From IMG/VR virus record IMGVR_UViG_3300011883_000002, positions 1 through 64,000 of that record: a stretch of DNA of 64,000 nt. The stretch is one strand, 5' to 3'. The notes below the pieces were generated by a model. That model did not search any database. It had not been told where the DNA came from and saw only the letters and a program-made list of their open reading frames with translations. The translations under genes and the position numbers were made by a program. The stretch comes from a virus (lineage: Duplodnaviria > Caudoviricetes). Positions 4,881 to 59,560 of the stretch are shown here, one piece after another. Each line of letters opens with the position of its first letter. Position 1 is the stretch's first letter.

Positions 4881-5099
4881 TTAAGTGTATTGCCATTTAC
4901 AGTCTAAGATGTCGTCTATTGATCTTCCTGGAGTAGCTTCTCCTTCGCACCAGTAGCGATTATCTTCAAATTCCTCTGTCTCTATGGAGTAGACTCCTGA
5001 GCCACCTTCAAATGCTCTTGCTAATACTGTTGTTCCATCTGGAAGGAAAAGCTTTATAAGCTTGTGTTTTGCTGGTAATTGTTCTTTAATTGTTGGCAT
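4881..5099 (-). CDS. hypothetical protein
   Basis: Coupled ORF (TAATG overlap). Confidence 0.6.
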   Translation of the reverse strand: MPTIKEQLPAKHKLIKLFLPDGTTVLARAFEGGSGVYSIETEEFEDNRYWCEGEATPGRSIDDILDCKWQYT

Positions 5100-5443
5100 T
5101 ACTCTTCCCTTCCTAATGATTTGTTGATTGCTGTTCTTGCTCTTTCCAATGCCCTACAAGCTCCGTAGTCTTCAGCATCGCTTTTTAATGCCGCGCCATG
5201 GGTTTGAGTTCCTAAAACAGAAGCAAGTAATTCTAATACCTCAGCGCATTCAAGTAGAGATTCTTGAAGGTCTGGCGCGGCTGCTATTAGATGACCGTTT
5301 GCTTGGTAAGGCACATTTTTATCGAAATTTAGCGTGCATATCCTCCAAGAATCTTCACTCCAAATGCAGGGGGCGTAATCCATGTTGTTCGCTATTACCC
5401 AAGGAGCCTTGCTGATTGACCCCACTAATTTAAACCCGCCCAT
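5099..5443 (-). CDS. hypothetical phage protein (NGHLIAAAP motif)
   Basis: LIAAAPDL motif; coupled ORF. Confidence 0.7.
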   Translation of the reverse strand: MGGFKLVGSISKAPWVIANNMDYAPCIWSEDSWRICTLNFDKNVPYQANGHLIAAAPDLQESLLECAEVLELLASVLGTQTHGAALKSDAEDYGACRALERARTAINKSLGREE

Positions 5444-5855: not shown

Positions 5856-6623
5856 TTAATGCATGGGATAACTGAACCTGTTAGGTAGGTTTAGGAAAAC
5901 CATACCCGACTGATTAGAGTAGTGAAATTTGTTTGAGATGTATTTCTCCCGGAAAGCACGGTATCCGATCTGTTCTCGTTCAACAACTTTATAATTGTGT
6001 TTGGAGATTATCAGTCCGGCTTCGTTAAACTGTTTCTGCAGTCTTAATCCGGTGTGTTGTGATCTTTTGTATATCTGTCCTATTTTCCTGTTGCTCAGGC
6101 AAAGATTGATCTGTAAAGAAGTTTCGGTGGCGTTCAGCTTTTTCTCCGCTTTCAAAAGGCGTTGTGCTTTCTTGTGCGGGGTAAATGCTGAGTTATGCAT
6201 TTTTATTATTTCCTTCTTAGTTTGGATTGTCTTGCGCTGTTTATCCAGGTTTCTTTCAAATAGGCAGAATTTAAGGTTTATAAGCTGTGTTTGGTGGTCT
6301 GTGCTGGCTTTGATTGGGAACATGGCTGATGGATAGAGCTTCAGCATGTTGTCACGTCCTATGCACTGTAAATTGCCGTGGCTTATGGTTATAAGTTTGT
6401 TGGCTTGTAATTTCTTTAGATGCACTGATAAGGTGCTGGGTGAGCAATCAAGTTTACGTGATACTTTTCTAAGTGAGTAGTTGTAAACCTTGCCGTTTTT
6501 GTAAAGTTGTCTGATCCGGGCGAAGTAGCACAAAGACAGGAGCCAGTCGTATTTTACGGCTGTGTTGACTAATTTAAGAGTTAGCCAAACTTTGTCCTGG
6601 TACTGGGGTCTTTGTGGGTTCAA
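5856..6623 (-). CDS. basic double winged-helix DNA-binding protein (possible replication initiator or regulator)
   Basis: YSLRKVSRKLDCSPSTLSVHLKKLQANKLI and LSNRKIGQIYKRSQHTGLRLQKQFNEAGLI HTH-like segments; probable start TTG 6623 directly after the leader hairpin. Confidence 0.6.
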   Translation of the reverse strand: MNPQRPQYQDKVWLTLKLVNTAVKYDWLLSLCYFARIRQLYKNGKVYNYSLRKVSRKLDCSPSTLSVHLKKLQANKLITISHGNLQCIGRDNMLKLYPSAMFPIKASTDHQTQLINLKFCLFERNLDKQRKTIQTKKEIIKMHNSAFTPHKKAQRLLKAEKKLNATETSLQINLCLSNRKIGQIYKRSQHTGLRLQKQFNEAGLIISKHNYKVVEREQIGYRAFREKYISNKFHYSNQSGMVFLNLPNRFSYPMH

Positions 6624-6626
6624 TCT

Positions 6627-6754
6627 AAAGGAATTACAGTTTAATAGACACCGAATTGATTTGGACGGCAAGGGGGTGTGCTATTAAGACTGTAACCCTT
6701 TGGGATTAATATCTTGTTTGAGAAATTGCTATGTTGCGCTCCTTGCCGTCCAAA
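6627..6754 (-). promoter_or_regulatory. structured 5' leader: long hairpin whose loop is complementary to an upstream 14-mer
   Basis: Arms at 6627-6652 and 6675-6701; perfect inverted repeat at 6660-6673 and 6741-6754. Confidence 0.7.
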
Positions 6755-6805
6755 GCATTTGTATCGCGCTTCAAAGGTGTGGAGTTGTTTTGATTAAAGC
6801 AAGTG

Positions 6806-7219
6806 TTATTTTAAATTTCTAAAATGCTCTTTCATTTCCCTCAGCACGTTAATTGTCACGATGTTATTCCGGTTCTTGTCTTTAGAAAGGATACCGATCT
6901 TATCCTCAACATGCTTGATGCACTCTAAAACTCCCGGATTTGCCTGTTTTTCTTCGATCTCAGGCACTTTCTTTTGGTCCTTGGCCGATTGAGCCGCTCT
7001 ACGATAAATCTTGTAGAAAGCCTTTAATTCTTCCCCAGGCCAAAAGTATTCCCTGTCATCTTTGAGGATAACTACACTTCGTTTGGTTTTCGCCTTGTTG
7101 TAGTAGAAGCAGAATGTTTGGTTTTCAAACAGGACGTTAAATCCGTTTTGGGTTTTACTGAACTCTGCGTCTGGAGGGAATGTCTCTTGTATCTCCTCAA
7201 TGCTTGTGATCATCTGCAT
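6806..7219 (-). CDS. hypothetical protein
   Basis: Start moved to ATG 7219 (MQMITS), 2 nt after the upstream stop. Confidence 0.7.
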   Translation of the reverse strand: MQMITSIEEIQETFPPDAEFSKTQNGFNVLFENQTFCFYYNKAKTKRSVVILKDDREYFWPGEELKAFYKIYRRAAQSAKDQKKVPEIEEKQANPGVLECIKHVEDKIGILSKDKNRNNIVTINVLREMKEHFRNLK

Positions 7220-17528: not shown

Positions 17529-17536
17529 TATATTTG
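17529..17536 (+). promoter_or_regulatory. -7 promoter box
   Basis: TATATTTG(CA). Confidence 0.7.
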
Positions 17537-17540
17537 CACC

Positions 17541-17622
17541 ATCATCGCAGCGTCCTGCTGCCTTGCCTCTTGAATTTTACTTTTTAGCCCTGGATCTGGT
17601 AAATCCGGGGCTTTTGTTTTTT
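17541..17622 (+). ncRNA. candidate ~80-nt small RNA
   Basis: Promoter box, GCAGC/GCTGC hairpin, then intrinsic terminator; no ORF. Confidence 0.5.
17586..17622 (+). terminator. intrinsic terminator
   Basis: AGCCCTGGAT/ATCCGGGGCT stem plus T tract. Confidence 0.85.
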
Positions 17623-17680
17623 TATAGATTTCTGTATCGGCTATTTTAAGCCGTTTTAAGCGACTTTAATATCAAACCCT

Positions 17681-24506: not shown

Positions 24507-26617
24507 TGGCAAGGGCAGGGGAAAGGCTTAAAATCGAGGTTCAAGGGATTGATTATATCACCCCACCAGTTCCTCCTTTACGGAGTATAAGGAACTACAA
24601 GACAGCAAAGGCTGATCAGGTTTGGGTGCGTGATGAGACGTATTTGCAGTGGTCATGGAATACTAAGCGGTTCGATGAGGAGAAGAATAGATTAAAGCTG
24701 TGGTGGGAAGACCCAGAGCCAGGTCAAATGGAATGGTATGAAGCGGAATTACATCGCATCCATAATGGCGACTGGATAATGATCAATGGAGAGCCGGTGT
24801 GGTTTAATAAATACTGCTACTTCTTCCATCAGTGGTTTATGCTTTTGGAACAAATCTATCCAATATTCAAAGACACGTCACTTGAGTACTTCAGATTTGT
24901 GGAGCTGTGTGAGAATGATCCGGGCGCGCTTGGAGATTGCGGTATCAAAGGTCGACGTGTGGGGCTTACATCCATGGCATCTTCTATTGATGTCTTGGTT
25001 GCAATTACAGAGAGTAATACCCTTCAAGGAATGGTGTCTAAAACAGGTACGGATGCTTATGAGATGTACTTGATGTGTAAAAACGGTATTGAGAATTTGC
25101 CTCAGTTCTTTATGCCGGAAATCAACAAAGTAACTGAGTCGGAAATCCATATTGCTAAACAGCAAAAGAAGATCAGTGCCAACAATAAAACTGTTACTGC
25201 TGACAAAGGCTTGAATAATCGTATCAACTGGCTTGACACTGCGGAAAACGCTTATGATGGTCGTAGGCTTCGTAGGGTTAAGGTGGATGAGGCAGCTAAA
25301 TTTGAAAAGGTGAATGTCCAGGTGTTGATTAATAAAATCAGTGACACCCTTGTGGTAGGTTCATCAATCGGTGGTTATATGTCTGTTTTCAGTACGGTTA
25401 ACAAAGGCGACAAGGGTGGTGATAACTTCCGTAAAATCTGGGATGGTTCTGACCATGTAAACGGTAAGAAGGATATGTTTGGCCGTACTCAAACGAAGTT
25501 GAAGCGTTTCTTTATAGCTGGTTTCAGGGGATTGTATGGTTACATTGACAAGTACGGTAATTCTGTTATTGACACACCTACACCGGAGCAATCGAAGTAT
25601 TTGGCGAGTGTAATAGATCCCTCTACCGGTAGACCTGCCTGTTTAAATCCTAACATTGGCGCAAGACAATTCTTGGAGGAGTCTCGCAAGATGCTTGCTC
25701 ACGATCCTGAGCTTTATGCGGAGCAGGTTCGTAAGTATCCATTTACTTGGGAAGAGGTGTTTAAAGGGGCGAATAATATGTGCCACTTCGACCTCGATGA
25801 GTTGAACAAGCAAATTGAATTAATTGAGGACGAACTAAGAGAAAAACAGATTAGTGAGAATGGCCGGAGAGTTACTTGGAAGGAGTCTCCTAACGGAGAT
25901 GCTTACTTCGTTGATGATCCCAAGGGTATTAGCTTCCTGCTGGAGATATTGCCTCCTGAGCAGGCTAATTTACGGCAGATGGTAGGCTCTACACTGGTTC
26001 CTATGCACACTGCTTACGGAGCTGCAGGCCTCGATCCATACGCCAACTCACAAAAGACTGCGGAACTGGGGTCCGATGCGTGTTTGATGATTCATTCAAG
26101 GTACAATCCGTTATTCCCAGATACTACAGGAATGCCGGTTGCCATGATCTTAGGCCGACTACCAACAAAGGACGACTTCTACAACCAGTGCAAACTTATG
26201 CTCCGGTATTACGGTATCGCTATGCTTGCGGAGCGTGCCCCGACGGACTGGGAGGATTACTTCATTCGTCACCACTTAGCCGATCCATTGGAAGTTAAAG
26301 AGGATAGAATGGGTTATTTACACACAACCTTGCGGACAGGCAAAACAGAAGTGTATGGCGTAGCACCACAGGATGCGAACCTTCGTGAAGCTCACCTGAC
26401 TTACATGAAGGAGTATGCTCGGAATAACATGCACAAGATTAAATTCCTTCGTCTTTTGAATGATATGCTGGCATTTAATCTAAAAGACAGGTTGTTGTAT
26501 GATGCCTGCCTTGCTTGGGGGTATGCGCTTATCGCTTTAAGCGTGACCGTAGACGAGCCAAAGGATCCGGAGAGAGAAGAACCCATGATCCAGACGTTCG
26601 ACTTATCAGCGGCCTAA
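24506..26617 (+). CDS. terL: terminase large subunit
   Basis: IKGRRVGLTS (Walker A region); VKVDEAAK (Walker B); GLDPY nuclease motif. Confidence 0.9.
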   Translation: MARAGERLKIEVQGIDYITPPVPPLRSIRNYKTAKADQVWVRDETYLQWSWNTKRFDEEKNRLKLWWEDPEPGQMEWYEAELHRIHNGDWIMINGEPVWFNKYCYFFHQWFMLLEQIYPIFKDTSLEYFRFVELCENDPGALGDCGIKGRRVGLTSMASSIDVLVAITESNTLQGMVSKTGTDAYEMYLMCKNGIENLPQFFMPEINKVTESEIHIAKQQKKISANNKTVTADKGLNNRINWLDTAENAYDGRRLRRVKVDEAAKFEKVNVQVLINKISDTLVVGSSIGGYMSVFSTVNKGDKGGDNFRKIWDGSDHVNGKKDMFGRTQTKLKRFFIAGFRGLYGYIDKYGNSVIDTPTPEQSKYLASVIDPSTGRPACLNPNIGARQFLEESRKMLAHDPELYAEQVRKYPFTWEEVFKGANNMCHFDLDELNKQIELIEDELREKQISENGRRVTWKESPNGDAYFVDDPKGISFLLEILPPEQANLRQMVGSTLVPMHTAYGAAGLDPYANSQKTAELGSDACLMIHSRYNPLFPDTTGMPVAMILGRLPTKDDFYNQCKLMLRYYGIAMLAERAPTDWEDYFIRHHLADPLEVKEDRMGYLHTTLRTGKTEVYGVAPQDANLREAHLTYMKEYARNNMHKIKFLRLLNDMLAFNLKDRLLYDACLAWGYALIALSVTVDEPKDPEREEPMIQTFDLSAA

Positions 26618-58892: not shown

Positions 58893-59011
58893 TACATTTG
58901 AATTGTAGTTGGTAGCCTTCGAAACTAAACCAATTAGAAAACATTTATAACCCTTATTACCTGAGTAGCGAGTTCGAAGGCGCCAAAGGGTAGTAAGGGT
59001 TTTGTTATTTT
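58893..59011 (+). promoter_or_regulatory. promoter box plus structured leader of the HNH gene
   Basis: TACATTTG 58893-58900; stem 58949-58961/58989-59001; GCCTTCGAA 58915-58923 complementary to loop 58973-58981. Confidence 0.7.
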
Positions 59012-59560
59012 ATGAGTAAGTCAAAACCACTTCCGTCATTGGATATTTTAAACAAAACTTTCACCTATGATCCTATTACAGGTATTCTTGCATGGAAAGA
59101 TAGACCCGATTTTCATCATAGAACTAATGCGAGACTTAGGGGTAAGCCGGCCGGTTCTCAAGACTTTAGCGGAAATAGTAATGGTAGACTGAAGGTTAGT
59201 ATAAATGGCGTAAAATATATGGTTCATAGATTAATCTATTACATGTATTATGAATTAATCCCAGACGTAATAGACCATAAAGACGGTGATCCCTCTAATA
59301 ATAAAATTGAAAACTTAAGGAGTGTGACTACTCTTTTGAACGGCAGAAACCTTAGAAGGAGGGTTGTTGGGTGTACGGGTGTCACTGGTGTTTATTTTGA
59401 AAAGAAGCATAATAAGTATGCAGCAAGGATTTATAATAATGAAAGAGTCTATTTGAATTTAGGTCTTTTTGGTACAATTGAGGAGGCTAAGAATGCAAGG
59501 GATAAGGTTAAGGATAAATATGGTTATACAGATGATCATGGTTATTCCCCTCAAAAATAA
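59012..59560 (+). CDS. HNH homing endonuclease with AP2 domain
   Basis: IDHKDGDPSNNKIENLR; TGVTGVYF...KYAARI...LGLFGTIEEAKNAR. Confidence 0.92.
   Translation: MSKSKPLPSLDILNKTFTYDPITGILAWKDRPDFHHRTNARLRGKPAGSQDFSGNSNGRLKVSINGVKYMVHRLIYYMYYELIPDVIDHKDGDPSNNKIENLRSVTTLLNGRNLRRRVVGCTGVTGVYFEKKHNKYAARIYNNERVYLNLGLFGTIEEAKNARDKVKDKYGYTDDHGYSPQK

Follow-up and report, generated by a model that had tools for sequence, protein, structure and literature searches.

A conserved leader RNA with a 5′ segment complementary to the loop of a start-abutting hairpin, found upstream of a winged-helix gene in a probable Bacteroidota phage

The stretch of DNA analysed here (64,000 nucleotides, termed the window) comprises positions 1 to 64,000 of the virus record IMGVR_UViG_3300011883_000002 (Duplodnaviria; Caudoviricetes), which measures 73.7 kb in full. 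On its minus strand, the gene for a 255-residue protein with two winged-helix domains is preceded by an untranslated leader of about 140 nucleotides (nt), in which a 5′-proximal 14-mer, designated segment A, is exactly complementary to part of the apical loop of a long hairpin that abuts a TTG start codon. The leader is very likely a real, conserved and previously undescribed RNA control element, and its function probably resides at the level of RNA. The mechanism that we favour, to which we assign a probability of roughly 45%, is a translational gate in which pairing of segment A with the loop would activate expression.

The characteristic anatomy of the leader was computed from the sequence of the window (all coordinates refer to the minus strand). 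It lies in a 182-nt gap, among the longest non-coding stretches of the early gene block. A putative promoter “-7” box at 6772..6779 closely resembles the Bacteroidota TAnnTTTG motif but has CA where the motif has TA, and the predicted transcript start was placed from it at about 6767-6765. Segment A (6741..6754) would thus occupy positions ~+12 to +25 of the predicted transcript. It is followed by a 39-nt spacer (6702..6740), which is A+C-rich, poor in G and predicted to be mostly single-stranded, and then by a bulged hairpin of 25 base pairs (bp) at 6627..6701, with arms at 6701-6675 and 6652-6627, one or two G-U pairs and a free energy of -27.7 kcal/mol. The exact complement of segment A (6660..6673) resides within the 22-nt apical loop (6674-6653), and the duplex between the two would contribute -24.8 kcal/mol. 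The TTG start codon (6621..6623), with an A at position -3, is located 3 nt past the last stem pair and opens the gene at 5856..6623. Segment A, its 14-nt loop complement, the 25-bp hairpin and the position of the TTG had all been described in an earlier, sequence-only reading of this DNA, and each was confirmed, the first two by a repeat search that also recovered the stem arms. In that search the A/loop repeat pair widens to 20 nt at 90%, and with two mismatches allowed the pairing reaches 6760.

Within the entire 73.7-kb record, the 14-mer occurs in these two copies only, even when one or two mismatches are permitted. Of 100 dinucleotide shuffles made of the complete record, three produced a perfect inverted repeat of at least 14 nt with a gap of 35-110 nt. 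When the RNA corresponding to 6800-6600 was folded without constraints, segment A paired with the loop; the resulting structure (-47.4 kcal/mol, z = -4.45) was as good in none of 200 shuffles. A match to an already described Rfam family, which the sequence-only reading had named among the outcomes that would refute its claim, was not found: the covariance models gave no match over the window at the gathering score, none at E ≤ 5 over 6500-6900 and none at E ≤ 0.1 in four related loci, the C4 antisense RNA and HEARO families included. Cultured-phage records likewise yielded no DNA or protein match to the leader or to the 255-residue gene.

The leader was compared among three lineages: the window, L003 (the same as L004, L010 and L044), and L070 together with L075/L088. 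The close homologues P0155 and P0157 were considered as proteins only and stand outside this comparison. The closest homologue of the gene product (50% protein identity) is encoded in L003, on a complete 73.4-kb phage, where the upstream region again contains a 14-nt segment followed by a hairpin of 22-30 bp, the stem sequence of which is unlike that of the window; the loop carries the exact complement of the segment, and a TTG occurs 3 nt past the stem. In L070 and L075/L088 (45-47% protein identity) the layout is identical, with a different segment/loop pair of 12 nt that is again perfectly complementary. Measured from a CTTTG box, which is a match or near match to the “-7” element, the geometry is constant: in all lineages segment A occupies +9 to +25 and the loop complement +92 to +109, the hairpin has 22-31 bp and about -28 to -30 kcal/mol, and the UUG follows 2-3 nt beyond it. 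The spacers of the relatives resemble that of the window in length and composition. The upstream neighbouring genes are not the same between lineages, and the leader therefore travels with this gene. Further searches for relatives returned little: a single-protein search of viral contigs and an alignment search of genome contigs gave no related loci, and additional viral scans with protein alignments and with a hairpin-base pattern found the known lineages again, plus L074 only.

Covariation in homologous leaders had been suggested earlier as a check, and an arm-swap control indicates that the pairings are kept by compensating changes. For the stems, arms from the same leader pair with -29 to -30 kcal/mol, compared to -6 to -17 kcal/mol for arms taken from different lineages. 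For the A/loop helix, the corresponding values are -28 kcal/mol for a leader's own partners and -10 to -18.5 kcal/mol when the window or L003 is combined with L070/L075. The window and L003 cross-pair more strongly (-21 to -26.5 kcal/mol) because they share a 10-nt A/loop core; the perfect 14-bp duplex is shifted by 4 nt between them. The energies of the A/loop duplex in the three lineages are nearly the same (-24.8, -25.0 and -25.5 kcal/mol). Judged from the sequences of these three lineages only, compensatory change is evident in both helices.

An ATG at the head of the extended segment A opens a frame of 9 codons in the window (6758-6729, minus strand). The same ATG in L003 opens a 42-codon frame that runs through the hairpin. 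Since it is missing in both L070 and L075, the frame over segment A is probably non-functional.

Four leaders (window, L003, L070 and L075) were folded in order to examine the relationship between the two helices. In a nested model, i.e., one without pseudoknots, the hairpin and the A/loop helix are mutually exclusive, and in L003, L070 and L075 no more than 1.6 kcal/mol separates the two conformers. When transcripts of increasing length were folded, the lowest-energy structure of each of the four leaders contained the A/loop helix for as long as the 3′ arm of the hairpin was incomplete. The computed cost of opening the start region (-18 to +13) is 2.6-5.1 kcal/mol when segment A is free to pair and 11.7-16.1 kcal/mol when it is blocked, such that in the nested model the A/loop helix reduces the cost by 9-13 kcal/mol. 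With segment A blocked, the stem in the window grows to 6709-6620, and the start codon becomes paired as well.

These energetics are consistent with the following scheme, in which a cis-acting, structured 5′ leader in the mRNA of the two-winged-helix early protein would gate the initiation of translation. The hairpin of 25-30 bp, ending 2-3 nt before a weak but conserved UUG, would hide an A/U-rich landing region for the ribosome, in a host which presumably does without most Shine-Dalgarno pairing. Because segment A is transcribed first, it can pair with the apical loop, as a helix of 12-14 bp, once the loop emerges and before the 3′ arm exists. In the nested model, this helix would leave the 3′ arm and the start codon single-stranded, and segment A would serve as a built-in activator, or anti-sequestor, that keeps the weak UUG accessible. 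Were segment A removed or masked, the hairpin would be expected to close and the message to be silenced. Candidate triggers are decay or processing of the 5′ end, a bound factor, or slow refolding.

Several observations weigh against this scheme. In the window itself the nested A/loop conformer is favoured by 12 kcal/mol, and this copy therefore does not look bistable. Three lineages are too few for a formal covariation statistic, and RNAalifold, applied to a plain MAFFT alignment, recovered only the base of the stem; since this result reflects bulges that differ between lineages, the arm-swap energy control was used instead. The hairpin is as stable in the antisense as in the sense orientation and contains few G-U pairs, so that no strand asymmetry favours an RNA. 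The promoter box is imperfect in the window, where the strict two-box Bacteroidota consensus is also not enriched. Finally, if a pseudoknot were to form, both helices would coexist and the start would stay covered, by which the modelled activating effect would be reversed or lost.

The sequence-only reading had left the choice between a pseudoknot and an alternative fold, which proved to be the correct framing. A pseudoknot combining a closed hairpin with pairing between segment A and the loop would stabilize the closed start region or, in a variant, form a recognition or standby structure that is controlled by whatever disrupts or binds the knot. Its geometry would be of the H-type, with loops of 30-40 nt (loop 1), 1-6 nt (loop 2) and 6-8 nt (loop 3). 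Both helices are strong and conserved in every lineage, the linker lengths are alike, and formation of the A/loop helix before closure of the stem avoids a threading problem; moreover, a rough sum of the hairpin energy, the duplex energy and a pseudoknot penalty of ~9-10 kcal/mol is lower than the energy of the best nested fold in all four leaders. On the other hand, a helix of 12-14 bp within a loop of 22-26 nt and with a return linker of 6-8 nt is sterically marginal and would require fraying at the top of the stem, and such a structure does not call for nested conformers that are nearly equal in energy, as they are in three of the four leaders. We regard the pseudoknot as rather unlikely. 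A role in transcription, where the hairpin and a U-rich stretch would terminate at the gene start and the early A/loop helix would act as antiterminator, appears less plausible still. The stem base is indeed rich in G/C, and U-rich tracts come after it in L003, L070 and, above all, L075; moreover, the sister leaders in L074 and L076 (see below) hold a canonical terminator hairpin that ends in 6-8 U residues, which points to attenuation in this gene family. In the window, however, the tail after the stem is a poor U tract, and a terminator scan finds none on the minus strand at the leader; loops of 22-26 nt on stems of 25-30 bp are atypical of intrinsic terminators, which would also have no need for a start codon within 3 nt of the stem in all lineages.

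The inverted copies might alternatively act as DNA, as an operator pair or as origin sites for the encoded winged-helix protein, in which case they would co-vary since binding specificity co-evolves. The product is DNA-binding and shows a weak initiator signal (phrog_428, E = 3.9e-4; 4pta, Z = 6.5), initiators commonly autoregulate via inverted repeats near their promoters, both copies reside just downstream of the predicted transcription start, 81-87 bp apart, and the equal stability of the sense and antisense stems is also in keeping with such a role. Yet one copy is always found in the apical loop of a covarying stem of 25-30 bp, for which a double-stranded DNA site offers no reason; between the window and L003 the paired stretch is displaced by 4 nt, yet it is still 14 bp long and of the same duplex energy; the phage genome contains no additional copies or iterons; and the same layout, in unrelated sequence, precedes an HNH gene of the same phage. 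Function as a DNA site is accordingly improbable, and we attach similarly little credence to an element of stability or processing without a switch, wherein the paired 5′ end would shield the message from 5′-end-dependent decay or the hairpin would be a site for RNase III. Such sites in phages look like bulged hairpins of 25-30 bp, which the hairpins described here resemble, and the 5′ arm starts within a few nt of the predicted 5′ end in all leader types of this gene family, as well as in two homing-endonuclease leaders; this explanation fails to account for why the partner of the 5′ end is the loop of a start-abutting hairpin, or for the conserved distance of 2-3 nt to the UUG. Least credible is an antisense circuit of the IncI/IncB plasmid type, in which a plus-strand countertranscript bearing the sequence of segment A in its loop would compete for the mRNA loop. 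A cis copy of an antisense-loop sequence is a hallmark of these plasmid circuits, and the gene here may be initiator-like, but no conserved opposite-strand promoter was seen by eye in the three lineages, the ATG frame over segment A is absent from L070 and L075 such that no leader peptide is conserved, and the polarity is reversed relative to the plasmids.

The proposed activation through loop pairing has counterparts among known systems, of which the IncI/IncB plasmids are nearest in logic. A pseudoknot in the leaders of the plasmid rep genes, repZ and repA, was reportedly described by Asano and Mizobuchi in 1998 and by Wilson et al. in 1997. Like those leaders, the phage leader displays a hairpin loop complementary to a distant linear segment (12-14 nt, perfect in all four leaders), upstream of a possibly initiator-like gene, and in both cases translation is proposed to hinge on the pairing. 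The plasmid loop is 5′-proximal and its partner lies beside the ribosome-binding site, whereas the phage has the reverse order, with the loop beside the start codon and its partner close to the 5′ end. The plasmid pseudoknot depends on a leader peptide being translated, and an antisense RNA blocks it; among the phage leaders, no leader peptide proved to be conserved (9 codons in the window, 42 in L003 and none in L070/L075), and no antisense gene is apparent. The helix is also longer (12-14 bp versus ~7-8), and there is no sequence or Rfam relationship. The analogy drawn in the sequence-only reading thus holds for the complementarity between loop and linear leader segment, and fails with respect to polarity and the leader peptide. 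Studies of the IncI-alpha, IncB and IncL/M rep-leader pseudoknots are included in the reference list of PMC10724649.

In bacteriophage T4, the start of homing endonuclease and late genes (I-TevI, segB and mobE), which need to be held in check, is covered by a stable RNA structure, and a late promoter inside the occluding structure yields transcripts that lack the 5′ arm (PMC2988022). In the phage leader a stable structure likewise encloses the start, as the hairpin ends 2-3 nt before the UUG and opening costs 12-16 kcal/mol with segment A blocked. In addition, the second site in the window and several leaders from related and unrelated phages (see below) precede HNH or GIY-YIG endonuclease genes. 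What differs from the T4 arrangement is that the start is covered by a local hairpin, whose loop is the target of the 5′ segment. Between segment A and the hairpin, no TAnnTTTG-like box was found in the window, L003 or L070, a search that was confined to this type of promoter.

The MS2 maturation gene leader, the lambda cIII mRNA and the hok mRNA are examples of leaders governed by kinetic or alternative folds. They share with the phage leader a long-distance pairing of the 5′ leader that competes with structure at the start site, as well as the importance of folding order during transcription. In these mRNAs the Shine-Dalgarno region itself pairs with an upstream segment, whereas segment A pairs with the loop of the occluding hairpin, in a host that probably has few Shine-Dalgarno sequences. 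The resemblance to the P1 c4 and P4 CI systems consists of complementary elements within one leader or operon transcript; those RNAs are processed, trans-acting small RNAs with two target boxes, while the phage leader neither matches the Rfam C4 family nor shows any sign of being processed. Closer to the P1 c4/P4 CI layout are the sister leaders of L074 and L076, with their promoter, 5′ arm and terminator.

The product of the gene can safely be described as a DNA-binding early protein. An AlphaFold (AF2) model with a predicted local distance difference test score (pLDDT) of 93 consists of two winged-helix domains linked by a long helix, and a family alignment reveals two helix-turn-helix regions. 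The family, as obtained by exhaustive search, numbers 155 representatives at 50% clustering. Pfam returned no family above threshold for the 255-residue product: helix-turn-helix hits were weak and all below threshold, and there was no Rep hit that would place it with the Rep_3 / RepA-RepE type replication initiators. The “replication initiation protein” family phrog_428 gave a weak match (E = 3.9e-4), and structure searches produced generic winged-helix matches only (Z ≤ 7.1), with the plasmid initiator 4pta (Z = 6.5) and DnaD-N among many fold matches of Z 5.5-7. Because the phrog_428 match is weak and the fold matches are generic, that the protein is initiator-like is a weak inference. The start codon is supported. 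The N-termini of homologues line up with the TTG at 6623, and a comparison of six loci left the TTG behind the hairpin as the sole in-frame start with which the conserved N-terminus is retained, in agreement with the start proposed from the sequence; the same TTG was picked by the gene caller in L075 and L076. In the relatives P0002, P0006, P0155 and P0157, gene callers shortened the gene to 179-204 residues, owing to the true TTG start being hidden behind the hairpin.

The genes of the phage are densely packed, the early ones forming a block on the minus strand and the structural ones a block on the plus strand; the terminase and portal match PHROG families. TAnnTTTG is the Bacteroidota “-7” promoter element, and several genes of the phage are preceded by a terminator and then by such a box. 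The closest cultured terminases (26% identity) are all from phages of Flavobacterium, Cellulophaga, Tenacibaculum and Maribacter. In view of these boxes and terminases, the host is probably a member of the Bacteroidota, in which initiation is largely not led by Shine-Dalgarno pairing. The boxes of the relatives match better than that of the window, with a TTTG-N19-TAnnTTTG-like arrangement in L003 and L070/L075. A scan for sigma-70 promoters and terminators revealed nothing relevant on the minus strand at the leader.

Gene control in Bacteroidota and their phages is poorly understood, as their starts do not rely on Shine-Dalgarno pairing, and the structure of the mRNA around the start is regarded as the chief determinant. 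The covarying two-helix leader offers a compact system, directly testable by disruptive and compensatory mutations, which would show how such phages time or limit the production of a DNA-binding early protein, and it represents a motif that Rfam does not contain.

The sequence-only reading had further claimed that the architecture recurs elsewhere in the window. On the plus strand, a second leader (58893..59014) is found upstream of an HNH endonuclease gene (59012-59560). It consists of a consensus TAnnTTTG box (58893-58900), a 5′ segment (58909-58925, with a perfect core at 58915-58923) and a 14-bp hairpin (58949-58962 / 58988-59001), the loop of which holds the complement (58973-58981); the ATG of the HNH gene (59012) lies 10 nt past the hairpin. 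In its fold the 5′ segment pairs over ~15 bp with the hairpin loop, and the opening cost is 8.8 kcal/mol with the segment free, compared to 16.0 kcal/mol with it blocked. The topology is thus the same as in the main leader, but the recurrence is statistically only suggestive: genome-wide, six sites of this crossing topology were counted versus 3.95 ± 2.2 in shuffles, and the second site is not significant alone. No close homologues of the HNH gene were found by which its conservation could be examined.

Other leaders of similar logic were observed in additional phages. Upstream of the orthologous gene in L074 (2300-2490) and L076 (950-1140), the products of which show about 48-49% identity, a second type of leader occurs. 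A consensus TAnnTTTG box is followed by a 5′-terminal arm that pairs with a covarying arm ~95 nt downstream; the two arms enclose a canonical terminator hairpin (run of 6-8 U) and a conserved small hairpin, and another hairpin abuts the TTG start (fold z-scores of -4.7 and -3.7). The portion comprising the promoter, arm and terminator would alone give a transcript of ~60 nt, resembling a small RNA, whose 5′ end matches the downstream arm. In G002, the record of L074, the first ~15 nt of a leader on the plus strand (~26296-26450), after a consensus “-7” box, pair ~75 nt downstream; the helix (-23 kcal/mol) is located 27 nt upstream of the ATG of a GIY-YIG-like endonuclease gene. More distant members of the protein family (L013:1900-2010, L071:2720-2800 and L073:430-590) have leaders of a third kind, where a consensus “-7” box precedes short repeated complementary blocks that surround a start codon, GTG or ATG.

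The presence of a 5′-terminal long-range helix in leaders of unrelated sequence argues for a mechanism that is based on structure and is not sequence-specific. It is conceivable, albeit doubtful at present, that pairing of a 5′-terminal segment with a start-site element forms a general expression gate in Bacteroidota phages. Such a gate would, on an equally speculative view, make translation dependent on a 5′ end that is intact or promoter-specific, and would have evolved anew in unrelated sequences; the genes that it might keep low, again with low probability, are the initiator-like winged-helix gene (with two leader types) and the HNH and GIY-YIG endonucleases. If true, this would amount to a principle of regulation as yet undescribed in this host group, and a general 5′-end-to-loop design would aid the annotation of starts (UUG being often missed) and of regulatory regions in uncultured Bacteroidota phages.

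Scans with a 20-nt two-arm pattern returned a known relative, ~20 unrelated chance matches and a large family of homing-endonuclease leaders. The latter are found upstream of GIY-YIG and HNH genes in L005-L009, L011 and L012 and in ~30 loci among L018-L067; the longest viral contigs that carry them are ~90-100 kb in length and roughly half complete according to CheckV, which corresponds to a T4-like genome size. Their order is a first arm in the loop of a small hairpin, a terminator, a TATAAATA-like box, and a second arm 10 nt before the ATG. This layout fits the T4 scheme of start-site sequestration with an internal late promoter. The arms of these leaders share an 11-mer with the window leader. 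We rejected this as a sign of homology, since the search was conditioned on those arms and the shared 11-mer is most likely a by-product.

Two further sites in the window deserve mention. At 5190-5354, within the open reading frame 5099-5443, two crossing perfect inverted repeats of 9 nt share one 7-bp stem, and may have arisen by chance. On the plus strand (17529-17624), in a 215-nt intergenic gap, a TAnnTTTG box is followed ~50 nt later by a canonical terminator hairpin (17586-17612) and a U run, which together make up a unit of ~85 nt resembling a small RNA.

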